From positions 68,276-132,275 of the forward strand of contig JAXJXV010000021.1 of NCBI GenBank assembly GCA_036307305.1: a stretch of DNA of 64,000 bases, written 5' to 3'. Position numbers and translations under genes: made by a program. Below, piece after piece: positions 1 through 17,972 of this stretch. The first letter of the stretch is position 1. Each line of letters starts with the position of its first letter. The notes beneath the pieces are model-generated. The model worked only from the letters and a program-made list of their open reading frames with translations. It was not told the origin of the DNA and did not search any database. The DNA comes from Acutalibacteraceae bacterium. GTDB lineage: Bacteria; Bacillota; Clostridia; Oscillospirales; Acutalibacteraceae.

Positions 1-387
1 GCCGATTTTATGAAGCGCAAAACCGAAGCCGAGCAAAAGCATATGGAACTGCAAAACAAAATTGCCGAGCTTGAAGCCGAGCAAAACAAAACCACACCCG
101 TTATCGACTACAAAGAAAAGCTTGAGGTTTTACGCTACGCATTAGAGCAATACACCGACTTTGATGCCGACGGCGATATCCCCGACAGCGTGGTTGAGGC
201 CTTTGTTGAGAAGATTGTGGTATCTAAAGAAGGCTATGATTGGTATCTGAGATTTGACGGCGACCCTAACGACCCGCTACACCTAAAAACAGAGGGAAAA
301 CGCCGCAAAAACACGGCTATCATCGACTCCAATAAGCAAACCGCTTGTGAACCCGTGCGCGACACAGGCTGCTATCAAGGAATCTAA
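1..387 (+). CDS. large serine recombinase, C-terminal fragment (5' end lies outside the window)
   Basis: The frame is open from base 1. LEVLRYALEQYTDFDADGDIPDSVVEAFVEKIVVSKEGYDWYLR aligns closely with the C-terminus of the recombinase ORF 15216..16439 (ITVLRYALEQYTNFDTDGDIPESVIEAFVEKIEVSKDCFKWYLR). Confidence 0.7.
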   Translation, partial: ADFMKRKTEAEQKHMELQNKIAELEAEQNKTTPVIDYKEKLEVLRYALEQYTDFDADGDIPDSVVEAFVEKIVVSKEGYDWYLRFDGDPNDPLHLKTEGKRRKNTAIIDSNKQTACEPVRDTGCYQGI

Positions 388-399
388 GTAATTAGATTT
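363..399. repeat. att-like site A, overlapping the stop codon of the truncated recombinase gene
   Basis: caggctgctatcaaggaatctaagtaattagattt matches 17894..17928 at 32 of 35 positions by hand alignment, including a 23-nt identical run, aaggaatctaagtaattagattt. Confidence 0.7.
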
Positions 400-443
400 T
401 TGTAGGGACAGGCGTCCTCGACTGTCCGTTATAAAACAAAACT

Positions 444-472
444 ATCCGCCCGAGAAATCGGGCGGATTTTTC
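444..472 (+). terminator. rho-independent terminator-like hairpin
   Basis: atccgcccga-gaaa-tcgggcggat followed by ttttt. The same stem arms recur at 17942..17967. Confidence 0.65.
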
Positions 473-527
473 TATATCTATTGCAATTTTTCTACAAATC
501 ACTATAACGAAAATTGGAGGTGTTTTT

Positions 528-893
528 ATGGATGATTGGAGATTAAACGGACAAGAAGAATATCTTTCCAATAAAACGCTTTACAAAATTATTTTTCCCG
601 ACTTTTGGAAAACTGCTTACGAAAACAGAAACGTTTTCTTCCAAAAAATCGAACAATATGCTAGAAAGCATATTGAAACTACCAATCGTGGACACGAGTT
701 TTTGGAAGGCGAAAAAATCCAACATTTTTGGCATGAGCATTGCGAATTCTGTTGGGAAAAGGCTTTAACCGATAAAGAATGCTCCTTTTACTGTACAGAA
801 GATATGCGGTATTGGGTATGTGAAGAGTGTTTTAACGATTTCAAAGAAAAGTTTAATTGGGAAGAAAAGTCGGTAGAAGAATTGCACTTATAA
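528..893 (+). CDS. hypothetical Cys/His-rich small protein (possible zinc-binding)
   Basis: 121-aa ORF with a GGAGG RBS (ttggaggtgtttttATG). Contains the cluster HEHCEFCW...CTEDMRYWVCEECF. No family recognised. Confidence 0.6.
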   Translation: MDDWRLNGQEEYLSNKTLYKIIFPDFWKTAYENRNVFFQKIEQYARKHIETTNRGHEFLEGEKIQHFWHEHCEFCWEKALTDKECSFYCTEDMRYWVCEECFNDFKEKFNWEEKSVEELHL

Positions 894-894
894 T

Positions 895-950
895 TTCCCT
901 CTTTTGCTGATAGTACCACAGGCTGCTATAAAGGAATTGAAGTAATCGGA
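895..950. repeat. att-like site B (diverged copy)
   Basis: gatagtaccacaggctgctataaaggaattgaagtaatcgga matches site C at 32 of 42 positions. The upstream tccctctttt tract is also shared with 17868..17880. Confidence 0.6.
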
Positions 951-1089
951 AAAATCCGAGCATTTCAGTTCCAATTAAATCGGGAAAATGCTGAAGATTT
1001 CATCAAAGCATTCCGCCCGAACCAGCGACTCCACTCCTTCGATGATATAACCGTTGAAGTGTGGATTTAGCTAGTAAATATAAGCATTT

Positions 1090-1125
1090 AGCCCACTATC
1101 GAAGAAATTCGGTAGTGGGCTTTTT
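1090..1125 (+). terminator. rho-independent terminator following a gene remnant
   Basis: gcccactatcgaa-gaaa-ttcggtagtgggc followed by ttttt. Confidence 0.6.
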
Positions 1126-1592: not shown

Positions 1593-2315
1593 ATGGAAGA
1601 TAAAAAAGAGCTTCGATTTGATTCAAAACAAAAAATAGAGCATTATAAAAAAGTCAAAACTAGTCCGTGGCCATATTTAATGATAGTAGCGTTAGTGTTG
1701 TTATTTGATACAGTAATTCTATATCTTCGTTTTTCTGATTATTATGGAAATATAGATGGAACTGCTATTATTCTTACTGTTGTATTTTCATTGATTTTTA
1801 TTGCGTTCTTTGTTGCATATTGGAATATTACAATCGATATGCAAATCACAAAATATAAGAAGCTGGTAGTTGAAAAGGAAATTACAGAGATTCCGGAAAG
1901 TTTGGAGTTGGATATTGATAAGAATCTTATAAAATTAAGTTTTAAATATTTAGATCAGTATTATCTGCAAACACGTGAACATGCTCAAAAAGGTTTTGCG
2001 GTTACTATTGGAGTTTCAATAGTAGGTGCTTTTATCCTCGCTGGAGGAATAATCGCATTGTTTCTGGGTAAAACAAGTCCAGCATATGTCACTACCGCAA
2101 CTGGAATAATAACCGAGTTTATTTCTGCTATTTATTTTTATCTGTATAATAAAACAGTACAAGGAATGGGTTCATATCATAATAAACTAGTTCTTTCCCA
2201 AAACATTGCATTAGCTTTGAAATTGTCAAATTCGCTTGAAAATAAAAGCGATGAAGCAAAATTAAATATTATTAACGAACTTGTAAAGGATATTAATACA
2301 CATATAGAAAAATAG
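1593..2315 (+). CDS. membrane protein with about 4 TM helices; the C-terminal 2-TM module resembles, from memory, TRADD-N-associated membrane domains
   Basis: RBS is aagaggaatgttttATG. Hydrophobic helices are PYLMIVALVLLFDTVILYL, AIILTVVFSLIFIAFFVAYW, FAVTIGVSIVGAFILAGGIIALFLG and TTATGIITEFISAIYFYLY. Confidence 0.6.
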   Translation: MEDKKELRFDSKQKIEHYKKVKTSPWPYLMIVALVLLFDTVILYLRFSDYYGNIDGTAIILTVVFSLIFIAFFVAYWNITIDMQITKYKKLVVEKEITEIPESLELDIDKNLIKLSFKYLDQYYLQTREHAQKGFAVTIGVSIVGAFILAGGIIALFLGKTSPAYVTTATGIITEFISAIYFYLYNKTVQGMGSYHNKLVLSQNIALALKLSNSLENKSDEAKLNIINELVKDINTHIEK

Positions 2316-2321
2316 AATTTA

Positions 2322-2350
2322 GCCTATCGCAGAAATGCGGTAGGCATTTT
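2322..2350 (+). terminator. rho-independent terminator
   Basis: gcctatcgc-agaaat-gcggtaggc followed by atttt. Confidence 0.55.
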
Positions 2351-2429
2351 AAATGTGCGATTTTGAAATTCGTATAGTCGCAGTTTGTTTCTCCTTTTGC
2401 TAAACTTTGGGCATAAGGAGGTGCTGACT

Positions 2430-2729
2430 ATGACACGGTTTATAGAAGAATTTTATTACGGAAATATTGATCCGCAGGCACGTAGTACGAAGCAAAACAA
2501 GACGGTTCAAAAGCAAATGGAAGTGTTGATGAAGACGGAAGATCTGCTCACGAACACTCTGACTGATGAGCCGAAGAAATGGTTTCTTGATTTCTCGAAT
2601 GCGTGGAGTGTGGTCAATGGTGAATCCAATCTTGACAGTTTTATTATGGGATTTCGCCTCGGTGCTAACTTTGCTTGCGATGCTTTTATCTCAACCGAAA
2701 CACCATTCGAGGACTTGTTAAAGAAATAA
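2430..2729 (+). CDS. small conserved hypothetical protein of mobile elements
   Basis: An aaggagg RBS lies 8 nt before the ATG at 2430. The product starts MTRFIEEFYYGNIDPQ. The function is not recognised. Confidence 0.6.
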   Translation: MTRFIEEFYYGNIDPQARSTKQNKTVQKQMEVLMKTEDLLTNTLTDEPKKWFLDFSNAWSVVNGESNLDSFIMGFRLGANFACDAFISTETPFEDLLKK

Positions 2730-2962
2730 AATTAATTAAAAAAGCACAGCAGATAGAATAATAACTCTGTCCGCTGTGCTTGTTTTTATGTTCAAGAGAA
2801 AACATCTGTATTATCTTAGCGAGCAGACCGTTTGTACTCCTGTTGTCGCAAAACAGTACTCGTTAGGGACACCCTAATACCCGTCTGCAATTTTCAAAAT
2901 CGCACATTCGTAAAAACAAACCTCTTTTGGTACAATCAAAGCATCAAAGGAGGTTTTGCTAT

Positions 2963-3334
2963 ATGAAAACATTATTCGAACAACTCGGCGGCACCTACAC
3001 AATGCAAGGCGATTACTGCTTGCCGAATCTTCTTCCACCCAACGAAGAAGAACGTCCCATCGGCGTTTGGGGACAGCGCCGTTTGCACTACCTAAAGCAC
3101 CACCGCAAAGTCCTGTACTATAACCTGCTCACAGCCGGCAAGCTCCACTCCCACCTCTTAGACATCGAAGAACAAGCCCAAGAATTATTCAATCGCCTCA
3201 CCACCGGTCTCGCACAAAAGGAAGGCATCACCGAACAACTCAAAGCAACCGATCAAATGCAGTGGGTGCAGAAGATGAGCAACATCCGTGAGCGTGTAAC
3301 TGAAACTGTCTATTCAGATGTGGTGTACGTATGA
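2963..3334 (+). CDS. TnpV-like transposon-encoded protein (Tn4451-type accessory protein)
   Basis: aaaggagg RBS before the ATG at 2963. MKTLFEQLGGTYTMQGDYCLPNL...GVWGQRRLHYLKHHRK matches my recollection of the TnpV family. Confidence 0.55.
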   Translation: MKTLFEQLGGTYTMQGDYCLPNLLPPNEEERPIGVWGQRRLHYLKHHRKVLYYNLLTAGKLHSHLLDIEEQAQELFNRLTTGLAQKEGITEQLKATDQMQWVQKMSNIRERVTETVYSDVVYV

Positions 3335-3398: not shown

Positions 3399-4331
3399 TT
3401 ATATAATACTAAGTTTGGTAACGGAATTTGCTTCCAAAACATCTTTTGTTTCGTTATCTTGAAAAATTTTAAAACAAAGGTAACGAATTAGTAAAGACGT
3501 TTCATCTGCGGTGCTAATCTTGAAATCGCCCGAATCATCAAGCGGTATATGTAACATCTCGGCAACTTTCTTTCGACTACGTTTATCCTTGATTCTATTT
3601 ACTCTCTCTGTTTTCAGTGTAATAAAAGTGCGAGAAGACTTGTACTGTGTAGCAAGAGATTTAAATGTTTCAACATTGCTAAAGGCATTTGTATTTACAA
3701 TTTCATCGATGGCTTCATTTTTTACTTTTGCCATTGTTTTTTCAAGATTAAACAATGTTTCAAAAGTGTGATTAAATGTATACATTGCGCCGTTATACAC
3801 AATTAGGTCGACGGTTAAATACAAACGACAAACATCGTCAGTTATTAAATCGAGTTCGTCATTTGCTGTTGTAGAGAATACTACTGATTTTTTGTTACTG
3901 AGTTTAGTTATAGGGTTAGCCAGCTTTATAAACGTTACGGGATTATCTTCTTCGGTAGAAGGTTGTCCATACAGTATATAACCGTTAATTCTTCCTTCAA
4001 TCTTTTGGTCAGAAGAAGCAGCTACCGCACTATTAAACAATGACCACTGCTCGGATACTAACTCATCCGTTATTAGTAACTTATCGCAAGATACTTTGCT
4101 ATTCTCTCCATCATAACTTTGCACATTGCTTATGGGTTCGATTTGAAAGTTTTCCGTTGCATTTAATAAATTAGATGCATATTGTGAAAGATAAGTTCCA
4201 TTCTTGAAACGAACTTTACTCACTTTATAAGGTTGTTTGCCACGGTTATCTATCTTGAAGAAGTATAAAGACCAACTATAACTATGTTCTTTTAGTGAAG
4301 AACACATGCTTTTTAGTATTTCTTTGCTCAT
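3399..4331 (-). CDS. KwaB-like protein (candidate Kiwa component, DUF4868-like)
   Basis: 310-aa soluble protein whose start overlaps the stop of the upstream 4-TM gene by 4 nt. Size and gene pairing fit Kiwa. The domain assignment is from memory, not a search. Confidence 0.45.
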   Translation of the reverse strand: MSKEILKSMCSSLKEHSYSWSLYFFKIDNRGKQPYKVSKVRFKNGTYLSQYASNLLNATENFQIEPISNVQSYDGENSKVSCDKLLITDELVSEQWSLFNSAVAASSDQKIEGRINGYILYGQPSTEEDNPVTFIKLANPITKLSNKKSVVFSTTANDELDLITDDVCRLYLTVDLIVYNGAMYTFNHTFETLFNLEKTMAKVKNEAIDEIVNTNAFSNVETFKSLATQYKSSRTFITLKTERVNRIKDKRSRKKVAEMLHIPLDDSGDFKISTADETSLLIRYLCFKIFQDNETKDVLEANSVTKLSII

Positions 4332-4966
4332 TCCTTTTCACCTTTGCTTTCCGTAATGTATATATAATTATCGAAATCCCAATACGATACATTATTTTGT
4401 TCTTCTTGAGTGAGGTCATCTTTGCTTATGACAAGACTATCATGATAGGTATGTTTCTCTTCAAGGATAGTACATTCAAGGTCACAGATAAACATTCGAT
4501 ATCCTTTGAATTCCAAGAAGATATTTGTATAAATATTGTTATTTCTTATACACAGAAAAGCCAAAACTGCAAAATAAATCAAAAATAAAGATAGATTTTG
4601 AAGATCGCCAAAATCAAAAGCAATCATAGGCAAAATATACGCGAGCAAAAACTCTGAAGATAGCTTGTTTGCTTTTGTTGCTTTAAGGACGGTTGCTTTA
4701 GGATTATCATCAGAGGAGTTTAATTTTTTGAGGAAAGCATTTATTCCGCCTATACTGCAAAGAACTACAATAACTATTGCAATAATACTAATTACCTGAA
4801 TACAACCTTCGCTTAATGAAGTAACTATATTTTCTAAAGTTTTAACTTTTTCATCCCATTTATCCATTACGATTAAAACAAAATCCCATGTGTCTATAAC
4901 AATAATAGAAATCCATAGGGGGATAAAAGATGTAACAAACATATCCCATTTAAATTTTCTCCACAT
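4328..4966 (-). CDS. KwaA-like 4-TM membrane protein (candidate Kiwa component)
   Basis: 212 aa with RBS agaggtga. Four hydrophobic helices (FVTSFIPLWISIIVI, IQVISIIAIVIVVLCSIGGINAF, FLLAYILPMIAFDF, LSLFLIYFAVLAFLCI) are followed by a soluble tail of about 70 aa. Confidence 0.45.
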   Translation of the reverse strand: MWRKFKWDMFVTSFIPLWISIIVIDTWDFVLIVMDKWDEKVKTLENIVTSLSEGCIQVISIIAIVIVVLCSIGGINAFLKKLNSSDDNPKATVLKATKANKLSSEFLLAYILPMIAFDFGDLQNLSLFLIYFAVLAFLCIRNNNIYTNIFLEFKGYRMFICDLECTILEEKHTYHDSLVISKDDLTQEEQNNVSYWDFDNYIYITESKGEKE

Positions 4967-5130
4967 AAAACGCTCACCTCTTTTTTATGATTTAACAGAA
5001 ACTTTAATTATAGAAAGTAACGACCGCATATTGCCGTTAGTTTAACAACACAGCAGAACACTTTTTCTCTATTAAATAACTACACTATTTGTTGGATTAT
5101 AGCTTTGATTATATATGTTTTTCATGGTTT

Positions 5131-6390
5131 CTATTGCTTTTTTATTTCTCTTATTATCCATACTGCACCGAATATAACAAAGATGCCCATGACAATCCAA
5201 AAGGAAATATTGAACGGGAGTTTAAACTCGGTCTGTAATACTTGTAGAGTTTGAGCACTGCCAAACAATGCAAGTATGTATAGAAGGATATTTAGCAAGC
5301 GACCATTGTTACTGATTTTCCTATCTTGATAAATGTTTAGCGTCTTTAATTTGAAGTCAATTGCTTGTTTATATCTTGTAAATGAGTAGGTGTTTTTTAG
5401 ATTATCAATCATATTTAAAGTGATAATTGGAACATGACGCGGGTACAATTGACTTTCTGCATAAATTTGATGATCGACTATTTCATCTAGTTTATGGTGT
5501 ATTTCATAGTCTATTATCATTTTTAATAATATAAAAATCTTAAAACCTTCAAGAATCATACAATCATTAAGAATATGATGCTTTTCCATTCCGTTACTGA
5601 TATCAGTAACCACACCTAAATACTCTGTGGAATAAAAATTGAATGCGTCTGTTGCCGAAATGTTTTTCACATTAAAATCTTCAACTTTTCCTCCTAACAC
5701 GCATTGAAAATATTCCGTAATGTTCTCTAACTTATTAGATAAAACGAGAATGTTATGAACATAACTATAGTTTCCAACTTCCCATTTATTGTTTGATGAT
5801 TTTGTCAAAAAACCATATACATTTTTAAAAATGATATCAGATATCTTACGATGGTCTTCTGAAAACTCCGCTTCATTAAAATACTTTATTTTATCAATAG
5901 GTTTGATTCCGAAATTATTAGATCTTCCATAAATAGCTTTTGACTCTAATGGAATACCAGTCTTAAAATCGATTAATTCAAAATTTACAATTAATGAACC
6001 GCTCATTATAAATGCTACAGGATCAACTTGATATACCACCTCTCCAAACATAACAAGAAAACGTTCCAAATTAAAGCAAGTATTAATTTGGATAAGCGTA
6101 GGATCTAAGAGCGCATTTGCTGAATGTTGGAGATAAAGAGTGGTCATCATCTCGTCAGCAAACTTTGCATAAGTCTTGTTATATTCTTCAAAATTCTTTT
6201 CAAAGTGAAATGCTGTAACTTGATTAAGAGAGTTGTATTCAGCCGTGTAATGACATTTAGCATAGGGAGTAATATAGGTGTTGTTGTGGGAAAAACCTGC
6301 TATGTGGAACTGAGTCCAAAAATCTTTCTTTGCTTTTTTTCCGAATCGAAAATGATGTCGTTCTATTTTATGAATGTTATAAGCGGTCAT
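5131..6390 (-). CDS. hypothetical 419-aa protein with a soluble N-terminal region and a C-terminal two-helix membrane hairpin
   Basis: Long ORF in the AT-rich block. The C-terminus reads LLNILLYILALFGSAQTLQVL ... FNISFWIVMGIFVIFGAVWII REIKKQ. There is no recognisable catalytic motif. Its own SD is weak, but an upstream micro-ORF overlaps its start codon in an ATGA. Confidence 0.7.
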   Translation of the reverse strand: MTAYNIHKIERHHFRFGKKAKKDFWTQFHIAGFSHNNTYITPYAKCHYTAEYNSLNQVTAFHFEKNFEEYNKTYAKFADEMMTTLYLQHSANALLDPTLIQINTCFNLERFLVMFGEVVYQVDPVAFIMSGSLIVNFELIDFKTGIPLESKAIYGRSNNFGIKPIDKIKYFNEAEFSEDHRKISDIIFKNVYGFLTKSSNNKWEVGNYSYVHNILVLSNKLENITEYFQCVLGGKVEDFNVKNISATDAFNFYSTEYLGVVTDISNGMEKHHILNDCMILEGFKIFILLKMIIDYEIHHKLDEIVDHQIYAESQLYPRHVPIITLNMIDNLKNTYSFTRYKQAIDFKLKTLNIYQDRKISNNGRLLNILLYILALFGSAQTLQVLQTEFKLPFNISFWIVMGIFVIFGAVWIIREIKKQ

Positions 6391-6461
6391 AAATACAACG
6401 GTTTCTTTTCTGTATTTGTCTTCGGTTGAACATCGTGCTTTATTTTCTTATATTTAGCCAT
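6387..6461 (-). CDS. 24-codon lysine-rich micro-ORF (MAKYKKIKHDVQPKTNTEKKPLYL), translationally coupled to the 419-aa gene
   Basis: It is below the ORF-track length cutoff. A strong SD (ggggaggtg) lies about 8 nt upstream of the ATG at 6461. Its TGA stop (6389..6387) overlaps the ATG of the downstream gene (6390..6388). Confidence 0.4.
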   Translation of the reverse strand: MAKYKKIKHDVQPKTNTEKKPLYL

Positions 6462-6515
6462 TCTCCGCACCTCCCCAATTATTTGAATACAACAATTATC
6501 TTTCTCAAAGCCCGT

Positions 6516-7631
6516 TTAAAATACAAATTGACATGTTCCTCCGCCGAGCCAGTTTACCTTCTTTGATATGCCGCCTTTTTCTCCGGAAACAACTTGTTCC
6601 ATGCGTTTGATAACATAGTCGCAAGTTTTATATTCACTTTCAATGCCGATATAATTACGATTGAGTTTATGAGCTGCAGAAACAGTCGTGCCAGAACCCA
6701 AGAACGCATCCATAACGAGCTCATTTTCATTTGTAGCAATCTCGATTATTTGACCGATCAATGTTTCTGGTTTGGGCGTATCAAATATATCTTTGTCATA
6801 AATTTTTAATGCTTTCAAATGCGTTTTGGCATCTTTATTTGTGCCAACAAATGACGACAACCATAAAGTTTCTGGTACAACACCACGTGGTCTATCCTTT
6901 AAAAACTTTTTGGCACGGGGGACTCCGTTACCATCATTACCAAACCAAATGTTGCCTTGAGCAATTTCCTCAGTCATTTTTTCCTTATTATAGATCCAGC
7001 ATCTACCTTTTGGAGGAGTATGAATTTTTCCGTTCGGGGCAATTATCTCGTAAAACTGGCTTTCAACTGCATGCCCATCTTGGACGTTAACGGATACAGA
7101 TTGCCATGGCCCTCTAGGATCGTTATCTGGATTATGGTAGCGAGTCAACACATCTTCGGTGATCGGTAACAAATTTCGTTTTTTCTTGAATAATTCAGGA
7201 TTTGGAGAATAAACCAAAATGTACTCATGATTATTTGAGAATGCTTTTCTGTTTTCACGGGTGTTTCTTTGCTGCCATATTAACGTTGTTACAAAGGATT
7301 TTCTACCGAAAATAGTGTCACACAACACTTTTAAGTAGTGCATTTCACCATCGTCTATAGATATCCACAAACTCCCGTCATCCTTCAAAAAATCCTTAAG
7401 TTCTCGCAAAACTTGTTCCATCTGCTTCAACCAATTGTCATGGGATTGTACATCGGAATAATATGTATATTTCTCCCCGTTGTTATATGGTGGATCGATA
7501 TAGATACAGCTTACCTGTTTATCGTAAATTGCGTGAAGGCTCTTTAATACATCTATATTATCCCCGTTAAAAACAACATGAGGGTTCTTTGAGTATTCTC
7601 TTTTCCATGTTGAGAAATCTAAATTAATCAT
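6516..7631 (-). CDS. site-specific DNA methyltransferase, beta-class N6A/N4C (N6_N4_Mtase type, Mod-like)
   Basis: Motif IV IYIDPPYN lies N-terminal to motif I AFLGSGTTVSAAHKLNRNYIGIE. Confidence 0.85.
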   Translation of the reverse strand: MINLDFSTWKREYSKNPHVVFNGDNIDVLKSLHAIYDKQVSCIYIDPPYNNGEKYTYYSDVQSHDNWLKQMEQVLRELKDFLKDDGSLWISIDDGEMHYLKVLCDTIFGRKSFVTTLIWQQRNTRENRKAFSNNHEYILVYSPNPELFKKKRNLLPITEDVLTRYHNPDNDPRGPWQSVSVNVQDGHAVESQFYEIIAPNGKIHTPPKGRCWIYNKEKMTEEIAQGNIWFGNDGNGVPRAKKFLKDRPRGVVPETLWLSSFVGTNKDAKTHLKALKIYDKDIFDTPKPETLIGQIIEIATNENELVMDAFLGSGTTVSAAHKLNRNYIGIESEYKTCDYVIKRMEQVVSGEKGGISKKVNWLGGGTCQFVF

Positions 7632-7643
7632 AAAACTCTCCTA

Positions 7644-8981
7644 TTATTTACAAACAATAAGCAATTCTGCTTCATCATTTGATTCAAAATTTTTGTCTAC
7701 AGAATTTAGTTTACTGTGAGTGAATTTTCCCGGAGAAACAACTTTTACATCCTCGAAATACTGATTTGCTTTTTCAATCAATTGATCGATTGTCTGCAAC
7801 CGAGGAGTAACTGCTTTTGAAGCATCAAAAGGAGAATATGATAAGACCAGAGGAACTCCCAGTTCTCTGACTTTTTGAAACAATTTATCAAATGCTTCTT
7901 CGGCCTCACTTTTTATGCAAAAAGGAGATTGATGTCTACCTGTTCGATAAATAGCACGGCTTATTCCGCCTTTGCCATTAGGGAAGGTTGTTGTAACTTT
8001 TGGGTTATCACGCAGACAAATAGTTTCAAGAACATGATAGTATCGACTATAATGGTAGCGTGTATATGGTGGATCGGCATATACTGCTGCTACCGGTATG
8101 CCTTTCAATTTATCTATAGCTGTAATGTAATCATCACAAATCATAGTATGTTTATGTTGTGTTTGGCCTATAGATAAGTAATAATTCAACCACCTCTCAT
8201 AAGTGGTATACACATCTTCATTTCTGTCTTTGAGTATTTTTTTTAGCAGTGATTTTTTTAATTCACCTTTAGAGTTTCGAACTTTAAGAGGTTGGGCGAA
8301 TTGTTTTCCTACCGTGTTTACTAAATCGCTTGCAGTGCTCAAAAGTGCAGCCAAGGATTTTGTTTTTAAAACACCATTTTGCCCAAATACCCAGTGTGCG
8401 ATACAGTCCATATCTATGGCCTGTTTGTATGAGTAATATAAGCCGCCATAGTATCTGCATATCATACTGTCTGCATGTGCAATGTTTTTGTTGGCATAAA
8501 GTTTATCAAAAGAAACTTTAATAGCATGTTTTAGTGCTCTAGATAAGCCAACTGATTCCTCGTGTTCAAAAATGTATAAAGAACCACACTCTATTATTTC
8601 GTATAGATGTTGATAACAGCCCTTTTCTGCAGACTCGATGCATTCTTTTTCGTGAGCAATCAATGACGTAAAAATATTATTGATTTCTGCTGTTTGGGGG
8701 TGACTTTTTATATTGTCTATTATCTCATTTGCTGGAACAGGCGAATTAATGAAGCTTGTAGAAGCTTCACATAAAACTTTTGAATACTCTTGAATATCGA
8801 CTGATATCACATCATAGGTATGAAGTAGATATTTAGATACTGTTCCGGAACCAGAAAAAAGATCACAAATCGCACCAGGGGTGTCTACGACCTCTAATAA
8901 GGCTTTTTCAATAGAATCCAGCATTCGCAGTTTGCTTCCTAAATAGTGAATAGGACGCACTTCTTTAGTTTCTTTGTTCAT
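7644..8981 (-). CDS. DNA adenine methyltransferase, D12/Dam-like class
   Basis: IHYLGSKLRML (Dam YxGxK signature), DLFSGSGTV (motif I) and VYADPPYTRYHYSRYYH (motif IV). Confidence 0.8.
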   Translation of the reverse strand: MNKETKEVRPIHYLGSKLRMLDSIEKALLEVVDTPGAICDLFSGSGTVSKYLLHTYDVISVDIQEYSKVLCEASTSFINSPVPANEIIDNIKSHPQTAEINNIFTSLIAHEKECIESAEKGCYQHLYEIIECGSLYIFEHEESVGLSRALKHAIKVSFDKLYANKNIAHADSMICRYYGGLYYSYKQAIDMDCIAHWVFGQNGVLKTKSLAALLSTASDLVNTVGKQFAQPLKVRNSKGELKKSLLKKILKDRNEDVYTTYERWLNYYLSIGQTQHKHTMICDDYITAIDKLKGIPVAAVYADPPYTRYHYSRYYHVLETICLRDNPKVTTTFPNGKGGISRAIYRTGRHQSPFCIKSEAEEAFDKLFQKVRELGVPLVLSYSPFDASKAVTPRLQTIDQLIEKANQYFEDVKVVSPGKFTHSKLNSVDKNFESNDEAELLIVCK

Positions 8982-8985
8982 GTGC

Positions 8986-10233: not shown

Positions 10234-10251
10234 AAAGAAATCAACTCCTCT

Positions 10252-11148
10252 TTAGTTCTCGTTATACGCACGATCGATAAGCGGTTTAGCTTTTTCAAAG
10301 TCTGCAGCATTTTGTAAATGAAGTTCTACAGCACCACAGCCCCAGTGACCAATATTAGTCACGTCTCGTGAAAATCCCGGCTCAAATGTTACTGAAGTAA
10401 CATCAATAGGCAGGTTCAAAATCAGCTTTTTCTTTAGTGCAACTACTGTTACAATGTTACGGATTTTCTTGAAAGCGGCGTAAAGCTTCAAGTGAGTTTC
10501 GGAAACATCATCACCAAGACTGAGGATATAATTAGTTAGATCTTGATATAAAGTTTTTACTGATTCATCAGCCGTCTTTAATTGTTCGTCAAATGTTTTA
10601 TCGGTGGATTTTGTCTTAGTGGTTTGAGCGTCATTGTCGGGAATTGCTGTTGCAACATTTTCATTGATGTGTTCAAACATCAACAGATCGCTGCCAAATT
10701 TCTTATATCTAATCAGGCTGACATTTCTATTCATTTGCTTAATAGCAGATTCATCGTACTTTGTGAAGTCGCCAGCAATACAAACAACACGAGGCATTGT
10801 CCAGTCAATCTTGTCTGCTTCTTTGAGTCCGAGTTTTTCAATTACTAAAACCTTAAAACTATCCTTATGATCTAAAAGCCAGTTAAGATAAAACAAACCT
10901 TGATTGATTACATTCTCTTTCATAGAACGTTTATATTCGAAGATGACCGGACAATGGTTTTCATCAATACCGATGCTATCCATTCGACCACCATCTGTTG
11001 TCTTGTATTCAGAAGCAAGAAAAGTTACACCGAAAAAGATTTCCATATTATTTTCAATAACGGTCTGTAACTCTTTTTCAAGTGTTACGTTGCCGCTTTG
11101 GTATTCTTTTACCTTGCCGTTTATGTTAAAAAGTTTTATATCAGCCAT
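10252..11148 (-). CDS. NucS/DUF91-like PD-(D/E)xK endonuclease domain fused to a DUF5655-like C-terminal domain
   Basis: GRMDSIGIDENHCPVIFEYKRSMKENVINQGLFYLNWL fits the D...ExK...Q..Y pattern of NucS-like nucleases. The C-terminal LYAAFKKIRNIV...GHWGCGAVE resembles DUF5655, from memory. Confidence 0.6.
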   Translation of the reverse strand: MADIKLFNINGKVKEYQSGNVTLEKELQTVIENNMEIFFGVTFLASEYKTTDGGRMDSIGIDENHCPVIFEYKRSMKENVINQGLFYLNWLLDHKDSFKVLVIEKLGLKEADKIDWTMPRVVCIAGDFTKYDESAIKQMNRNVSLIRYKKFGSDLLMFEHINENVATAIPDNDAQTTKTKSTDKTFDEQLKTADESVKTLYQDLTNYILSLGDDVSETHLKLYAAFKKIRNIVTVVALKKKLILNLPIDVTSVTFEPGFSRDVTNIGHWGCGAVELHLQNAADFEKAKPLIDRAYNEN

Positions 11149-11452
11149 TTTCTTTGTCCTCCAACTCTAACTTTGCAAGTTTTGCTTTTAGGAAATCTAT
11201 TTGAAACTGCATATTCGTAATAATAAGATTATCAGCAACTTGATAAAGGCTAACACTTCCGCTTACTGCTTGCTTTGCTTTAGTTGCTAATGCTAACTCG
11301 GCATCTGTAATTTGAAGCGATGTTATCTTTTCAATCGCATTGTTACGATCAAGAAAACCGCTCGTTTGAAATTGATAAACAATTTTTTCTCGCTCGGCTA
11401 TATCCTTTGCAAGGGATAATTTATCGTATTCTTTTTTTATTGGGTTACTCAT
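11141..11452 (-). CDS. small (103 aa) predicted alpha-helical/coiled-coil protein, first gene of the operon
   Basis: RBS is ggagcaaatATG. Its stop overlaps the downstream start by 8 nt. No motif recognised. Confidence 0.6.
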   Translation of the reverse strand: MSNPIKKEYDKLSLAKDIAEREKIVYQFQTSGFLDRNNAIEKITSLQITDAELALATKAKQAVSGSVSLYQVADNLIITNMQFQIDFLKAKLAKLELEDKENG

Positions 11453-11562
11453 ATTTGCTCCATTCTGTTATCCCTCATATGTCTACAAAACTCGCATCAA
11501 TGGTGCAAATTTTAGCAAGAGAGATGATATGTGTGGGGGAATAGTTTATTTATTTTTATATG

Positions 11563-12162
11563 TTAACTATGTAGCAGTATCTCCATAATGTCCATCACTT
11601 TATTGTAAACCCTCAGCTTCTTTGCGTAATCGGAAAGGGCGATGAGGTTTTTCTGCGTATCGTTTGCGTATGCATTTACCGCTTTACTGAACATTTCGTT
11701 ATCTACCTTGCCACGATGCTTGAACATATCGCAAATGGTGCGCTCACGGTCGTAAATAGCAAATGTAACGCCATTTTCGGTAATCGTGGTTTTACCGAGC
11801 TCATAGATATCGTCTTTAACGTAATAGACCTTTATCGGCACGGAGGTATTAAGCCTGCGTGATGCACTTCTCGGCACGGTAACAGACCAAACCCTCGGCA
11901 TAAAATCGCTGTAGCCATAACGGAACAGAGCCGATTCCATACTGATGATCGCTTCGGGAATGGTAGAAGCGATTACCTGCTCATCGGAGAGGATCAGCTC
12001 GTCTGCAAGTTGATAATAGCCTTGACGGACACGCTGAAGAAAGCCGTCTGAACACAGCTTATATATCTTCTCTTTTGGCACGCCGGCGGATGTGAGAGCA
12101 GACAGCTTTGCAATTCCGCCGTTGGCACTGATTATGTTTTTTATAATATCTTTATGTTCCAA
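11563..12162 (-). CDS. AbiEi-like (type IV toxin-antitoxin antitoxin / wHTH regulator), no cognate AbiEii present
   Basis: N-terminal wHTH is IISANGGIAKLSALTSAGVPKEKIYKLCSDGFLQRVRQGYYQL. The C-terminal domain has SMESALFRYGY...IYDRERTICDMF. The likely start is the TTG at 12162, 7 nt after GGAGG, rather than the longer ORF-track start. Confidence 0.65.
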   Translation of the reverse strand: MEHKDIIKNIISANGGIAKLSALTSAGVPKEKIYKLCSDGFLQRVRQGYYQLADELILSDEQVIASTIPEAIISMESALFRYGYSDFMPRVWSVTVPRSASRRLNTSVPIKVYYVKDDIYELGKTTITENGVTFAIYDRERTICDMFKHRGKVDNEMFSKAVNAYANDTQKNLIALSDYAKKLRVYNKVMDIMEILLHS

Positions 12163-12377
12163 TGTCCTACCTCCAATAAACGATAACACATTGTGTTTAA
12201 TGTTTTCTTTTGTATTATAGCACAAGTGTGTGAATATAGCAATAAAAAATCGAAACAAAAATCAATTTGTGTTATCATTTTTTGAATTCAATTGCTTCTT
12301 TGGCGCTTATCGAAAGATAGGCGTCTTTTTTTATGCCTATTTTTTTAAACACCCTTGTGGATCGGGGTATCCCTGTG

Positions 12378-13555: not shown

Positions 13556-14470
13556 ATGGCAAGAAAATCAGATTTTACTCTGCCGCCGATCCCCATTGAT
13601 GCCATCTTTTCAACACAGGCGGAAAGAGACGATGCGCTCTTAGAGCGAGTACACAATATTCCTCTTGAGCAATTGCACCCATTCAGGGATCATCCATTCA
13701 AAATTCAGTCAGGAGAGGAAATGGATAAAATGATAGAGAGTATCCGCAAGGTTGGGGCGATAACACCTGCACTTGCACGACCGCTTGAGGATGGCGGGTT
13801 TGAGCTGATATCGGGACACCGCAGACTTGCTGCGTGTCAAGTATTGGGACTTAAAACAATGCCCGTAATTGTTCGTGAAATGACAGATGATGAGGCGGTG
13901 ATCGCAATGGTAGATGCAAATTTGCAAAGAGAAACCATACTCCCCAGCGAAAAGGCGTTTGCTTATCGGATGAAGTTGGAAGCAATAAAACACCAAGGTA
14001 GGAGTATTTCCCGACAACTTGTCGGAAAGGAAAGCGCTGACACACTTTCAAATGATGAAAGCGGCAGACAAGTCCAAAGATATATCCGCCTAACATACCT
14101 CATCCCCGAATTACTCACCAAGGTAGACGAAGGCGAAATTGCTTTCAGTCCGGCGGTAGAAATCTCATTCTTGACAGAGGATGAGCAAAGAATCCTGCTT
14201 GATGCAATCGAACTAAACGACTGCACGCCTTCCCACGCACAAAGCATACGGCTGAAAAAGCTATCGCAGGACTGTGTACTGACCAAAGACCAAATATACG
14301 AACTGATGGCGGAGGAAAAGCCGAACCAACAGGAGCATTTGCGGTTTCGCAGAGAGGATTTCAACGGATATTTCCCTAAGTCCTACACCGAACAGCAGAT
14401 AAAGAAAGATATCCTGAAAGGTTTAGAGCTTTTGCACCGCCACCGACAGCGAAACCGTGATGCGAGATAA
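13556..14470 (+). CDS. ParB/Srx N-terminal domain protein (ParB-like nuclease domain)
   Basis: LHPFRDHPF...FELISGHRRLAACQVLGL...MPVIVRE is the classic ParB-N box. Confidence 0.8.
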   Translation: MARKSDFTLPPIPIDAIFSTQAERDDALLERVHNIPLEQLHPFRDHPFKIQSGEEMDKMIESIRKVGAITPALARPLEDGGFELISGHRRLAACQVLGLKTMPVIVREMTDDEAVIAMVDANLQRETILPSEKAFAYRMKLEAIKHQGRSISRQLVGKESADTLSNDESGRQVQRYIRLTYLIPELLTKVDEGEIAFSPAVEISFLTEDEQRILLDAIELNDCTPSHAQSIRLKKLSQDCVLTKDQIYELMAEEKPNQQEHLRFRREDFNGYFPKSYTEQQIKKDILKGLELLHRHRQRNRDAR

Positions 14471-14499: not shown

Positions 14500-14688
14500 A
14501 TGATTACAATTATTAAGGATAAAAATCCTAACCATATTTTCGCCGCCTTAAAGCTTTGCGAACAGCTTTATCACGACGGCAAAATTCCGTTATATATGTT
14601 TCGAAATATGGTAAATCAGCACGCTGACGTGGTGGATGCCTCGAAATTTAATTTCACCATTCAGCAGGAAGGAGAAAAAGCCGGATGA
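14500..14688 (+). CDS. small hypothetical protein, ATGA-coupled to the recombinase gene
   Basis: aaaggagg RBS. Its stop overlaps the ATG at 14685. Confidence 0.55.
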
Positions 14689-16439
14689 TGTATCGATACA
14701 ATGAATTTGACGAACGAAGGGTGGTGATTTATGCCCGTGTTTCCACCGAGCACGAAGCACAGATATCCGCACTCAGCAATCAGCTGGAATGGTATCAGCA
14801 ATACCTCGACCACCACCCCGAATGGAACTTAATTGACCGCTATATTGACGAGGGTATCACGGGAACCTCGGCGGAAAAACGACCGGGATTTACCCAGATG
14901 ATTGCAGATGCCAAGGCACACAAGTTTGACCTAATCATTACACGTGAGGTCTCCCGATTTGCACGTAATACCGAGGAAACCCTGCACTTTACAAAGATGC
15001 TTCGCCGCATCGGTGTTGAAGTGTTCTTTATTAACGATAATATCAAAACCTTTGACGGCGACGGCGAGCTTCGCCTTACCATAATGGCGAGCCTTGCACA
15101 GGACGAAAGCCGCAAGACCTCTATCCGAGTGAAAAGCGGTCAACAGATCTCTATGGAAAAAGGCGTGTTCTACGGCAACGGCAATATTCTCGGCTATGAC
15201 CGAGTGTAGAAAATCGTGGAGGGCAACAAAAAGCAGGTGGATTTCAATATCAATCCCGTGCAAGCCGAAACGGTGCGTAAGATATTTGATATGTACCTTG
15301 AGGGACACGGCCTAATGGCAATAAAAAATGAAATGGAGCGAACGGGGCGTAGGACTGCTACGGGACTACCGAATTGGCATTGCACGGGAATCTCCCAAAC
15401 GCTCAAGAACTCCTTTTACTGCGGTATCATTACCTACCACAAGGAATACACTCCCGACTTTTTGGTGCAGAAAAAGGTAAAAAACTACGGTGAAATGGCA
15501 TTAACACAAGTGCAAGGCAGACACGAGCCGATTATAACCGTTGAAGAATACGAAAGGGTGCAAAAAATCATGAAAAGCAAAACGGGAAAACTCAAGAATC
15601 CAACCGCAGGAAGAAAGCTGACGGGCGTAACACCGCCAAAGACCGTATGGGGCAGACTGATGATCTGCTCCTGCGGTAGGCGGTTTAACCGCCGCAAATG
15701 GAGAACCAACGCTAACGGCGAAAAGTTCTTCGGCTATCAATGCTACGGCACAACGCAAACAGGCACTATCAAAAGTCGCCTAAAACGTGGACTCCCAATT
15801 GACGGTATCTGTCAGTCACCGATGATTGCCGAGTGGAAGCTGCAGATGATGGCAAACTATATCTTCCGGCACTTTCTAACCAATAAGCAAAAGGTATTGG
15901 AAATCGCAAACTCCTTACTTGAGGAGCATATCGGCGATACCGAGGTGCAAGTGCAGGATAATTCAAAACTCATTGAGCAGAAACAACGTGAGCTTGACAG
16001 AGCCAACACCAAGCGCAGAAATCTTGTTGATTTGCTTAGCAATTGCGATATCACCCGTGAGGACTATCAAGAGGCACGTGCCGAGGTGGATAAGCAGATA
16101 GATAAACTCAAGGCGGAGATCGAAGAACTGACACCCGTAGTCGAGGAAACCGAGGAGGAAGAAATTGACTACGAAAGCAAGATAACCGTTCTCCGATATG
16201 CCTTGGAGCAATACACCAATTTTGATACCGACGGCGATATCCCCGAAAGCGTTATCGAAGCCTTTGTAGAAAAAATCGAGGTTTCAAAGGACTGCTTTAA
16301 GTGGTATCTTCGTGGTGATTTCGGCGGCGACTCTCCCATTCCTATGAATGTGGAGGGTAACCGCAAGAAAGGGGCGACAATTTCGCCCCAATACATAATT
16401 CCCCCTGCAAACTTTGGCGACTCAGGCAGCAATCGCTGA
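14685..16439 (+). pseudogene. large serine recombinase interrupted by one in-frame TAG (15207..15209)
   Basis: The N-terminal resolvase domain ([13 protein letters not shown], catalytic Ser) ends at TAG. The recombinase, zinc-ribbon and coiled-coil part continues in the same frame from 15210 (ORF 15216..16439). Confidence 0.8.
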
Positions 16440-16486
16440 TATGTAATTTTAACGAAATTAATTTCGTAGCATAAAACAATCAATCC

Positions 16487-16504
16487 CCTCGGAGCAATCC
16501 GAGG
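16487..16504 (+). terminator. hairpin after the recombinase gene (no clear T-tract)
   Basis: cctcgga-gcaa-tccgagg. Confidence 0.35.
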
Positions 16505-16517
16505 GAGGAGATTTGAT

Positions 16518-16643
16518 TATTCGGGGTTTTCATGGTATAATACGGATAAATTATAAAAAAAGGGTGTTTTTATGATTGTTTATTCGGGGTTTTCATGGTA
16601 TAATACGGATAACTTATAAAAAAGGGGTGTTTTTATGATTGTT
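16518..16643 (+). repeat. 63-bp tandem duplication (2 copies) of the fucosidase promoter, RBS and first three codons
   Basis: tattcggggttttcatggtataatacggataa[a/c]ttataaaaaa(a)gggtgtttttatgattgtt occurs at 16518..16580 and 16581..16643. Each copy carries an extended -10 (tggtataat) and ATGATTGTT. Confidence 0.9.
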
Positions 16644-17858
16644 GAAAAAAGAATTAAGGATTTTGAAAAACTCGGTTTTGGTATGTTTGTGCATTTTGGC
16701 CTTTACAGCGTTATAGGAAAAGGTGAATGGGCAAAACACAGTTTAAATATACCTTGGTGCGAATATCTTAAAACATTTGATAGTTTTGAGCCTAAAACAA
16801 ATTGGGCAGAGGAATTAGTTTTAATTGCAAAAGAGGCTGGTTGCCGATATATAACACTAACTACCAGACATCATGATGGATTTTCTCTTTATGATACTTG
16901 CGGATTAAATACCTATGATGCACCTAATGCGTGCGGTCGAGACATTGTAAAAGAATTTGTGGACGCATGCAACAAATACGGTATTATACCTTTTTTCTAT
17001 CATACTCTTTTAGATTGGCACGAAGAAAGCTACGAAAACAACTTTGGAGAATACTTAAAATATTTAAGAAAAAGTATAGAAATCCTTTGCAAAAACTACG
17101 GAAAGATAGGCGGATTTTGGTTTGACGGAATGTGGGATAAACCGAATGAAGATTGGGAGGAGGATGCACTTTATTCTCTTATTAGAAGTTTTCAGCCCGA
17201 TACTATGATAATAAACAACACAGGTCTTAATAACCGTGGTGAACTAGGTCATATTGAACTTGACAGTGTCACCTTTGAACGCGGCAGACCTCAACCCATA
17301 AATCTTGAATGTTCCCCCAAATATGTTGCAAGTGAGATGTGCGAAACTTTTGCAAGCCATTGGGGATATGCGAAAAATGACTTTAATTTCAAGCCATTGG
17401 AGCATCTTATTAACAGTTTTGCTGTTTGCCGCAGATATAGGTCTAATTTTCTTTTTAATGTAGGACCAAAAGCTGACGGAAGCCTTCGCACTATTGATAA
17501 AGGTGCATTAGAGATTTTAGGGCAATGGAGCAATCTGAACGATGAGGCATTGCATATTCCTGAACCCACTGATATTGAAATTAAAGATAAACCAAACAAC
17601 TTTATCCTGCGTAATGATAACACTTATTACCTTTTTATGAGTGATTTAAGCATTAGTGGTAATAAAAATGTTACTATAAATAATAATGTTAATTGCGACA
17701 ACATTTTCCCGTTTAACAAAAAGGTTAAATCTGTATGTTGGCTTGACAGCGGAGAAACACTTAACTTTACCCAGAATGGTAGTGAAATAAACATTAACTC
17801 CAAACCTTTTGAATGTGGGCAAGATTTCGTCGTGAGAATTGCTAAAATAGAAGTATAA
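16635..17858 (+). CDS. alpha-L-fucosidase, glycoside hydrolase family 29
   Basis: GFGMFVHFGLYSV...KEAGCRYITLTTRHHDGFSLYDT...FFYHTLLDWHE are typical GH29 motifs. Confidence 0.85.
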   Translation: MIVEKRIKDFEKLGFGMFVHFGLYSVIGKGEWAKHSLNIPWCEYLKTFDSFEPKTNWAEELVLIAKEAGCRYITLTTRHHDGFSLYDTCGLNTYDAPNACGRDIVKEFVDACNKYGIIPFFYHTLLDWHEESYENNFGEYLKYLRKSIEILCKNYGKIGGFWFDGMWDKPNEDWEEDALYSLIRSFQPDTMIINNTGLNNRGELGHIELDSVTFERGRPQPINLECSPKYVASEMCETFASHWGYAKNDFNFKPLEHLINSFAVCRRYRSNFLFNVGPKADGSLRTIDKGALEILGQWSNLNDEALHIPEPTDIEIKDKPNNFILRNDNTYYLFMSDLSISGNKNVTINNNVNCDNIFPFNKKVKSVCWLDSGETLNFTQNGSEININSKPFECGQDFVVRIAKIEV

Positions 17859-17867
17859 TGGCAGTTC

Positions 17868-17928
17868 TTTCCCCTCTTTTTCCGATAGCACAACAGGCTG
17901 AAATTAAGGAATCTAAGTAATTAGATTT
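17868..17928. repeat. att-like site C (shares its left part with site B and its right part with site A)
   Basis: See sites A and B. The sequence is tttcccctctttttccgatagcacaacaggctgaaattaaggaatctaagtaattagattt. Confidence 0.7.
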
Positions 17929-17941
17929 ATAAAGTAAAAAT

Positions 17942-17972
17942 ATCCGCCCGAATTTTTTTGGGCGGATATTTT
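17942..17972 (+). terminator. terminator-like hairpin homologous to 444..472
   Basis: atccgccc-gaattttttt-gggcggat followed by atttt. Confidence 0.5.

Follow-up and report, generated by a model that had tools for sequence, protein, structure and literature searches.

Probable tandem stacking of large serine-recombinase elements and single-gene cassettes at the 3' end of ppdK in an Acutalibacteraceae bacterium

The stretch of DNA analysed here (the window, 64 000 nt) corresponds to C21:68276-132275 in the genome of an Acutalibacteraceae bacterium (G000, assembly GCA_036307305.1; 2.02 Mb in 24 contigs), C21 being contig JAXJXV010000021.1 of this metagenome-assembled genome (MAG). Three att-like direct repeats of the window, sites A, B and C, were analysed together with ppdK, the pyruvate phosphate dikinase gene located 31 kb upstream of the window. 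The repeats are probably the junctions of a tandem stack, each unit of which, small cassettes included, was inserted at the core CAGGCTGCTAT in the 3' end of ppdK. The array reads ppdK, element E1 (31 kb), cassette 1 (365-918), element E2 (919-16422, 15.5 kb), cassette 2 (16423-17893) and then the rest of the chromosome. Positions without prefix are those of the window; genomes, contigs, loci and homologous proteins are designated by G, C, L and P numbers, respectively.

Results

Repeats and junctions behind ppdK

Sites A and C agree at 33 of 36 positions (364-399 versus 17893-17928) and share an identical stretch of 23 nt, AAGGAATCTAAGTAATTAGATTT. Each is followed by a terminator-like hairpin with the same stem (ATCCGCCC...GGGCGGAT, at 444-467 and 17942-17967), with folding energies of -19.6 and -25.5 kcal/mol (z = -5.3 and -5.6). 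Site B is more diverged; it agrees with C at 33 of 42 positions across 909-950 and has in common with it an upstream T/C-rich tract (TTTCCCTCTTTTGCTGATAGTACCA at B, TTCCCCTCTTTTTCCGATAGCACAA at C). These similarities had been reported in an earlier note made from the window sequence, together with the overlap of site A with the stop codon of an upstream recombinase gene (C21:66914-68662, 582 aa) and the end, at 16439, of a second recombinase gene beside a weak copy of the site (core CAGGCAGCAAT, 16423-16433). All were recovered. When up to three mismatches were allowed, the 36-nt site was matched twice in the window and never in 100 shuffles; with up to nine mismatches, only three copies (A, B and C) were present in the whole 2.02-Mb genome. 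A chance repeat or a mere shared terminator was ruled out by these two counts.

The ppdK gene (C21:34771-37401) ends with ...RLAAAQAAIKSGK and a stop codon, and its last codons contain CAGGCTGCTATAAAG (C21:37377), the same core as in A and B and the fifth copy of it. The five junctions were anchored on CAGGC. In the ppdK frame, all of them read as a C-terminus of pyruvate phosphate dikinase of the ...QAAIKxxK-stop type: AAAQAAIKSGK at the end of ppdK, QAAIKESK at A, QAAIKELK at B, QAAIADM at 16423 and QAEIKESK at C, each closed by a stop codon. CAGGC(T/A)GC is common to the five junctions, the core CAG GCT GCT AT sits in the ...AQAAI... codons, and a stop is regained within 3-4 codons at every junction. 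On the right, the arms of all units resemble the native ppdK arm over about 20-30 nt, whereas the left arms differ and consist of ppdK, of a recombinase tail or of a 25-nt motif.

The units were delimited from these junctions. E1 extends from about C21:37388 to C21:68650, wholly upstream of the A-to-C interval, and site A is read as its right junction; the attR previously proposed there was confirmed by the recombinase 3' end on one side and the native right flank on the other. Site B had been called an attL with a chromosomal left flank. It does behave as the left junction of E2; its left flank is a cassette end motif and not chromosomal DNA. The weak copy at 16421-16451 is read as the right junction of E2. 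Site C had been taken for the surviving target and turned out to be the end of the last cassette joined to a native-type ppdK tail and terminator. It is not a virgin attB, because the left flanks of B and C are both a conserved 25-nt cassette end motif. The successive insertion of at least two elements at one target, put forward in the earlier note, agrees with the four units now placed behind ppdK. Of the 17.5-kb island that it drew from A to C, the att-type junctions and the tandem accretion of serine-recombinase elements were retained; the interval holds three units and the target, ppdK, lies outside it. A single 17.5-kb element bounded by A and C was excluded by the internal junctions B and 16423, by the cassette copies found elsewhere and by the position of E1.

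Empty and occupied sites in relatives

Forty relatives were searched with the last 581 nt of ppdK and the DNA located 3' of the gene was then read. An empty site was found in G009 and G016, with the sequence ppdK...CAGGCTGC(T/A)AT(C/T)AAAGAAT(T/C)TAA(G/A)TAATTAGGTTTA..AAAGCAAAA.TATCC followed by a hairpin; here ppdK runs straight into the right flank of A and C. The tail and terminator found behind site A (376-467) have counterparts directly after ppdK in G009, G016 and G018. In G005 and G006, CAGGCTGCTAT is followed by the same sequence as in G000 (AAAGTCTGGCAAGTAATTCC...ACTTTAACTTCGCAG...), which is the left end of E1. In G012, two cores enclose an element of 8.3 kb, the recombinase of which has 580 aa (51% identity). 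The site is thus occupied in G000, G005, G006 and G012 and empty in G009 and G016, with the 11-bp core common to all of them. Insertion polymorphism between relatives, the comparison suggested in the earlier note, was therefore seen at exactly this core. Crossover is placed within the 11-bp CAGGCTGCTAT because the core is common to the empty site, the E1 left junction and site A, and the flanks diverge.

A whole-array empty site, in which ppdK would be joined to the DNA right of site C, was not found in the relatives, which carry those genes on other contigs (65-73% identity). In G009 (L034), synteny with 39358-48857 of the window (78% identity) is seen 2.2 kb beyond ppdK. In G000, the 21 kb between site C and 39358 (17958-39322) hold core genes, with rplM and rpsI at 33021-33865, so the G009 arrangement corresponds to a rearrangement and not to an empty site. 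Since synteny resumes in G009 at 39358, the end of ppdK is also a rearrangement breakpoint between species of the genus.

Two other observations were made around the site. In G012 (L040/L041, 8377-24234), a 15.9-kb multi-gene unit with sugar and glycyl-radical-enzyme type genes is located between two ppdK-tail sites, the distal one having neither a cassette motif nor a recombinase tail on its left. In the window, a 74-codon open reading frame (ORF) fragment (17958-18182), with neither promoter nor ribosome-binding site (RBS), begins directly after site C; it may be what is left of another unit or of the initial flanking DNA.

A recombinase gene split by its own attachment site

Both E1 and E2 encode a large serine recombinase with the Pfam domains PF00239 (Resolvase) and PF07508 (Recombinase). 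The best PDB match was 3g13, the catalytic domain of a clostridial conjugative-transposon recombinase (E = 1.8e-36); the SPbeta and A118 integrases were also matched, and the TnpX entry 2mhc gave a weak match in the N-terminal domain (E = 7.7e-5). Pfam Zn_ribbon_recom was not matched at E <= 0.01; the sequence does show a Cys cluster (LICECGH...YLCYS...YCKTP) and a long heptad-like stretch. Among the ORFs of E1 and E2 that were scanned, Pfam revealed no other recombinase.

Read in the recombinase frame, site A gives ...VRDTGCY followed, across the junction, by QGI and a stop, so that the last three codons and the stop of the E1 recombinase gene are supplied by the ppdK-type tail. Immediately after the core at the opposite, left ends of the elements, the same frame reads KVWQVIPAYFNFAEFTLTEKDAKEYKYSKSTKQRVHKWKDIKVKLYI in E1 and KGIEVIGKIRAFQFQLNRENAEDFIKAFRPNQRLHSFDDITVEVWI in E2, each closed by a stop codon; in E2, positions 930-1070 make up a 46-codon C-terminal extension (KGIEVIGK...ITVEVWI). 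The E1 recombinase and its left-end extension were joined into a 626-aa sequence, which was used as query in a homologue search. Homologues of 613-627 aa (P0002, P0003 and P0005; 50-57% identity) were matched throughout the C-terminal region and have TGCY some 45 residues from their end. For many homologues of 570-600 aa, similarity stops right after TGC(Y/H/N) and unrelated short tails follow, often QGLI.. or QGI-stop, which is the ppdK tail in the recombinase frame. Since the full-length homologues carry the extension contiguously and the others end after TGC(Y/H/N), attP would be located inside the gene and the integrated copy would be truncated by about 45 codons. In this scheme, the core of the large elements would lie within the recombinase gene, and integration would remove about 45 C-terminal codons, which would be kept at the left end of the element. 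Excision of E1 as a circle would restore the full-length gene.

The recombinase gene of E2 is probably inactive, as judged from its in-frame TAG. This stop stands in the context GYDRV-stop-KIVEGNKK and the remaining frame is open, for which reason the inactivation looks recent or could be a sequencing error. Two further recombinase genes were noted. On L162, an 84-kb JGI metagenome contig, a family recombinase of full length (623 aa) is encoded, in which the core ACAGGTGGATAT is degenerate and the extension has decayed (11726-11872), with chromosomal genes directly after its stop; it is either a fossil or part of an element with its att site elsewhere. G000 itself has a third, distant large serine recombinase gene (C14:168233-169804), 32% identical to that of E1.

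Single-gene cassettes closed by a common motif

The two small units of the window are members of a larger family. One genome per species was scanned for CTTTTNCNNATAGNANNACAGGCTG, which gave at least 119 stretches and at least 143 motif copies; the consensus was made from 140. Arrays of such cassettes occur in over a hundred genomes of gut Clostridia. Among the matches listed, the carriers are nearly all gut MAGs (animal and human) of Acutalibacteraceae, Faecousia, Oscillospiraceae or unclassified Clostridia. Within these matches, arrays hold 1-6 cassettes and a cassette has a median length of 759 nt; 121 of 129 cassettes have their longest ORF on the same strand as ppdK, and for 40 of these 121 the stop codon directly adjoins the 25-nt motif. 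In at least 42 loci, the end of ppdK itself serves as the first site. In G016, G017 and G018, the terminator of ppdK is followed by a single gene closed by TAA-TTTCCCTCTTTTGC..ATAGCA.CA-CAGGCTGCTAT-tail-terminator with no recombinase, and G017 has two such cassettes in a row. A -35/-10 pair begins 89 nt after the core (interquartile range 86-93) in 68 of 134 cassettes, versus 11 of 120 control windows, and the start codon is about 146 nt after the core. The cargo is diverse: 127 cassette ORFs fell into 102 clusters, and Pfam matches in an ORF sample included YbjQ, DUF4234, HTH-zinc ribbon, nucleotidyltransferase, CPBP protease, HD, GDSL and ToxN.

Cassette 1 encodes a 121-aa Cys/His-rich protein with no Pfam match and has the layout of the other cassettes (134 compared). 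Its left end (376-467) would at the same time be the B' arm of the E1 attR. Cassette 2 carries an alpha-L-fucosidase gene. From 16573 to 17971, it is 96.7% identical to a cassette of another MAG (L076), where the left neighbour is a different cassette, and 86% identical to a copy in a Faecousia MAG.

Two local features of these cassettes were recorded. As a result of a 63-nt tandem duplication (16513-16638, copies 95% identical), the fucosidase gene has two copies of its promoter (TG located upstream), of its RBS and of its initial codons, and the 97%-identical L076 cassette has a single copy of this stretch. Between the ppdK-type tail of site A and its terminator, a 29-nt insert forming a small hairpin (TTGTAGGGACAGGCGTCCTCGACTGTCCG, 400-428) is present; L136 has the same insert at the same place, L142 a related one, and G018 and G001 a different insert of about 100 nt at the corresponding position.

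This regularity bears on an explanation in which cassettes and repeats are immobile scars, left by recombinase elements after internal deletions, with B and C as relics of recombinase 3' ends. The resemblance of the motif, read in the recombinase frame, to a C-terminal stretch of the recombinase fits such an origin, and the nonsense mutation of E2 does show decay. However, the motif has a constant length and lies 0-10 nt behind the ends of more than 100 unrelated ORFs, whose starts keep a constant distance to the core before them. These near-constant ORF ends argue against scars, because independent deletions would leave ragged ends. In addition, the same cassette is found in different arrays with different neighbours. 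The scar explanation is considered quite improbable.

Link between the cassette motif and the recombinases

In the recombinase frame, the cassette motif reads FPSFADSTTGCY and is homologous to the tails of recombinase genes. Such tails end in ..FSPALDSSTTGC (L115) or ..NSPAMDNSPTGCY (P0005), and ..SPA(M/I)(D/H)xSxTGCY is found in dozens of homologues. The DNA of L115/P0005-type tails (...GATAGTAGCACCA/CAGGCTGC) aligns with the motif; likewise, ...CTTGATAGTAGCACCA/CAGGCTGC of L115 and ...GAAATTCCCCCGCCATGGATAACAGCCCCA/CAGGCTGC of L161, where the gene is intact, align with TAATTTCCCTCTTTTGCTGATAGCACCA/CAGGCTGC with one-codon indels. Together, motif and core form a 9-bp dyad around ACAG (GATAGCAsC-ACAG-GCTGCTATC), the motif having the length of an attP half-site. 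The central CA would be the crossover dinucleotide.

Two other origins of the motif were rejected. The left flanks of B and C can be taken for diverged ppdK remnants (SPLFPIAQQA.., like ..SPFRVPIARLAAAQAA); recombinase tails match them more closely, with a one-codon indel, and the two resemblances may have a common origin. A structured RNA or an attC-like hairpin was discarded in view of the lack of fold signal, the two motif-core-tail copies of the window giving z = -0.36 and +0.63 against shuffles.

The dyad could also be read as TGATAGCA-N8-TGCTATCA, the site of a host-encoded or other tyrosine-type (Xer-like) recombinase that would move the cassettes, the serine-recombinase elements merely sharing the hotspot. 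Two 8-bp inverted repeats placed 8 bp apart have the geometry of a tyrosine-recombinase core site, and cassettes do persist in genomes that lack the serine recombinase. Against this, no tyrosine recombinase was found near ppdK or among the scanned ORFs of E1 and E2, the conserved motif extends for 25 nt on one side only, and it is homologous to the tail of a serine recombinase gene. This possibility is hardly credible.

Proposed mechanism

In the stacking model, the right arm of an incoming unit would open with a ppdK tail copy closed by a stop codon; in cassettes, the terminator would come next. Upon insertion, ppdK would stay complete, the proximal junction would keep the look of the target and the native tail would be displaced rightward. 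Since the right arm of a cassette resembles the native ppdK tail, insertion would leave ppdK with an attB-like site and the far end with an attP-like one. The attB-like site would allow repeated insertion beside ppdK, and excision could occur without a change of site type. On this basis the units would have arrived in the order cassette 2, E2, cassette 1, E1. In other genomes, E1-type left ends stand directly after a cassette motif in L061, L158 and L183, which fits later insertion of a cassette between ppdK and the element, and an E2-type left end adjoins a cassette motif in L154.

The cassettes would be non-autonomous mini-elements moved in trans, because they have no recombinase of their own and their end motif is homologous to the 3' end of the recombinase gene, that is, to the P arm of attP; we infer that recombinases of this family mobilize them. 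A broader proposal can be offered tentatively, as one that may well fail. The 3' end of ppdK in Acutalibacteraceae, Oscillospiraceae and related gut Clostridia would be an integron-like gene-capture platform run by large serine recombinases. Cassettes would be inserted, excised and exchanged between lineages in trans, arrays would grow as the target is rebuilt, and a switch between truncated and full-length recombinase could control directionality.

Comparison of homologous cassettes brings in another route of spread. The large elements would still be serine-recombinase insertions, and the cassettes would be exchanged, after DNA uptake or conjugation, by homologous recombination between conserved spacers of about 170 nt. 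The entire spacer between ORFs (motif, core, tail, terminator and promoter) is conserved, and not the core alone. When homologous cassettes are compared pairwise, similarity begins on the left at scattered points, from -30 to +250 with respect to the core before them, and tail and terminator frequently fail to be co-inherited with the gene. The family recombinase is absent from most of the genomes that bear cassettes. On the right, in contrast, similarity ends within a narrow range at the core (+6 to +26). In length and position the motif corresponds to a recombinase half-site, it is homologous to the P arm of the recombinase, and a 9-bp dyad surrounds ACAG at the site. Moreover, homologous recombination gives no reason why every unit ends exactly at the motif. 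As the only vehicle of the cassettes it is rather unlikely; by exchange between the conserved spacers, it probably contributes.

Several points weigh against the stacking of all units by serine recombinases. The left tail and terminator were kept with the gene in only some homologous cassette pairs, an outcome not expected from exchange at a single core; it is precisely in this segment that the fucosidase cassette departs from its 97%-identical relative. In a family sample of 151 genomes, eight had the motif, two the recombinase and only G000 both, so that no association was seen between motif and recombinase; within the genus, the recombinase is limited to G000 and G012, and G016-G018 have cassettes and no close recombinase. 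Loss of mobile elements during MAG binning may thin this co-occurrence. No excised circle or attP joint of E1 was found in metagenome contigs, the sole match to the E1 left end being another motif-E1 junction. Classical large serine integrases recombine attP with attB only, and the re-use of a hybrid junction is an assumption of the model. The order of the units rests on the assembly of a MAG contig. Finally, the stacking model has no explanation for how unrelated ORFs come into one common frame.

Comparison with known systems

Composite islands of the staphylococcal cassette chromosome (SCC) type are made of tandem units separated by extra att copies, and ccr-less pseudo-SCC elements exist; the ppdK array is built likewise. 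Its five junctions each give a ppdK tail and two of its four units have no recombinase. SCC, SCCmec and the enterococcal ECC elements (CcrAB) also resemble it in their large serine recombinases and in their insertion in the 3' end of a conserved gene, rlmH there and ppdK here, which is rebuilt (PMC6222049, PMC13739063). Imperfect direct repeats of about 50 bp are a further common feature, as is an inverted repeat carried by attR and by the circular joint (PMC6222049, PMC13739063). SCC differs in its ccrA/ccrB pair and its rlmH target, whereas a single recombinase gene, which is not close to Ccr and has the core inside it, and ppdK are involved here; no Ccr structure was found among the PDB matches of the recombinase. 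In addition, the non-autonomous units are here uniform single-gene micro-cassettes (median 759 nt) with their own promoter and terminator, in arrays of up to six or more. By analogy, the SCC/ECC family is the closest mechanistic counterpart.

Tn4451 and Tn4453 are clostridial mobilizable transposons with the large resolvase TnpX at the element edge, TnpV, a TnpZ/RSA module and GA-dinucleotide targets, and the circular joint of Tn4451 creates a promoter for the recombinase. The elements studied here share with them the recombinase at the edge, TnpV (in both E1 and E2) and a circular joint that would alter the recombinase gene, in this case by restoring its 3' end. They differ by the weak match to TnpX and by their specificity for ppdK with a CAGGCTGCTAT core instead of GA targets. 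No Mob/TnpZ or RSA mobilization domain was found in E1 or E2 with Pfam; E1 has a NikA-like gene.

Like integrons, the ppdK arrays consist of small, mostly single-gene cassettes on the same strand, with diverse cargo, a conserved end site and one fixed entry point, and some of them have no recombinase nearby, as in clusters of attC sites lacking integron-integrases (CALINs). Unlike in integrons, no tyrosine integrase was found near ppdK or among the scanned ORFs of the array, the end motif shows no hairpin fold (z about 0), entry occurs at the end of a housekeeping gene, and the cassettes have their own -35/-10 and terminator instead of a common Pc promoter. None of the defining features of an integron was found.

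Tycheposon islands of Prochlorococcus also insert at the 3' end of a gene and rebuild the target. In Streptococcus thermophilus, integrative and conjugative elements (ICEs) and cis-mobilizable elements (CIMEs) accrete at the 3' end of fda (reviewed in PMC5704250). As behind ppdK, a rebuilt 3'-end target leads in both systems to tandem autonomous and non-autonomous units with att repeats in between. The ICESt/CIME elements differ in using tyrosine integrases and in having units of several kilobases instead of uniform single-gene expression cassettes.

The ppdK target itself is known from PvCTn-like conjugative transposons of gut Bacteroidota, whose attB is at the 3' end of ppdK, in the same stretch of the gene (PMC11005914). 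Their integration yields imperfect direct repeats and regenerates the stop codon within 2-3 residues, and other mobile elements use the site (PMC11005914). These elements carry a BVU3359-type integrase, BVU3432/3433 regulators and conjugation genes (PMC11005914). They differ from the present ones in belonging to another phylum and in being large conjugative transposons with type IV secretion genes; the family of their integrase is not named there, and neither arrays of single-gene cassettes nor tandem stacks are described there (PMC11005914). A literature search on ppdK with serine recombinases, or on integron-like cassette arrays of serine recombinases, returned nothing specific.

Since both SCCmec-type accretion and the ppdK target in Bacteroidota are already known, the two large elements belong to a known kind. 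The novelty lies in how numerous and how regular the units devoid of recombinase are, with at least 143 motif copies in one fixed 170-nt frame behind ppdK, in several families of gut Clostridia. The cargo of these cassettes is unrelated (ToxN, GDSL hydrolase, CPBP protease, fucosidase and many proteins of unknown function). If serine recombinases do move the cassettes, the arrays would represent a second, mechanistically independent solution to the task of integrons. They would also make available a natural collection of sites, attP-like and attB-like, among which product sites are almost identical to substrate sites, with a bearing on directionality control in serine recombinases, for which the split recombinase gene provides a testable hypothesis. 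For annotation, ppdK arrays account for assemblies of these organisms breaking just after ppdK. The recombinase gene split by its own att site and the regular ppdK cassette arrays are both worth experimental follow-up.

Features of the window and cargo of the elements

The features are collected in Table 1, in which junctions and arms are named according to the stacking model.

Table 1. Features of the array within the window (junction and arm assignments are those of the stacking model)
Feature	Position	Strand	Evidence or reading
E1 large serine recombinase, 3' end	1..387	+	582 aa in all (C21:66914-68662); ends ...VRDTGCYQGI-stop; no internal stop
Site A	364-399	+	36-nt site; core at 365..375
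Core CAGGCTGCTAT of site A, E1 right junction (attR)	365..375	+	Flanks diverge on both sides
Native-type ppdK tail, 29-nt insert (400-428) and terminator (444-467)	376..467	+	Tail QAAIKESK-stop read from 365 to 391
Cassette 1 body	481..893	+	Promoter-like TTGCAA-16-TATAAC (481-508), RBS, 121-aa ORF (528-893)
25-nt end motif of cassette 1 (TTTCCCTCTTTTGCTGATAGTACCA), left flank of B	894..918	+	Begins right after the stop codon of the gene
Site B	918-953	+	Third, more diverged copy; motif 894..918 to its left
Core CAGGCTGCTAT of site B, E2 left junction	919..929	+	Sequence, translation
E2 left arm (P')	930..1121	+	ppdK-frame tail ...IKELK-stop to 945; terminator 1090-1121
CyanoTRADDas_TM protein	1593-2315	+	Pfam; E2 left-end module (1593..3334)
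DUF6809	2385-2729	+	Pfam; E2 left-end module
TnpV	2927-3334	+	Pfam; E2 left-end module
E2 cargo	3399..12258	-	Pfam: KwaB-like protein with a partner with four transmembrane segments, 419-aa protein, N6/N4 and D12-type methyltransferases, PLD-type nuclease, DUF5655 protein, AbiEi-like regulator
ParB-like gene	13556..14470	+	Pfam ParB_N
E2 large serine recombinase	14685..16439	+	58% identical to that of E1; in-frame TAG at 15207-15209
Diverged core CAGGCAGCAAT, E2 right junction	16423..16433	+	Sequence, translation
ppdK-like tail QAAIADM-stop (from 16423) and terminator (16485-16506), left end of cassette 2	16434..16506	+	Translation, fold
Cassette 2 body	16513..17858	+	Promoter TTGATT-17-TATAAT, RBS; 407-aa alpha-L-fucosidase gene (16635-17858)
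25-nt end motif of cassette 2 (TTCCCCTCTTTTTCCGATAGCACAA), left flank of C	17869..17893	+	Sequence
Site C	17893-17928	+	36-nt site; core at 17894
Site C core CAGGCTGAAAT, native-type tail QAEIKESK-stop (to 17920) and terminator (17942-17967)	17894..17967	+	Distal end of the array

On their gene content, E1 and E2 are both defence-type islands with the same backbone order. In each of them a ParB-like gene lies just upstream of the recombinase gene, and the DUF6809 and TnpV pair is common to both. The cargo of E1 was assigned with Pfam (L001/L002, C21:37652-66477). It comprises MerR, a 1566-aa NOV_C protein, DUF6809 and TnpV, a pPIWI_RE-associated REase next to a 1029-aa ORF, two C5 cytosine methyltransferases (one fused to HTH), DUF4268, HNH, a peptide deformylase, a Cthe_2314-like HEPN protein, the NikA-like gene, ParB and the recombinase.

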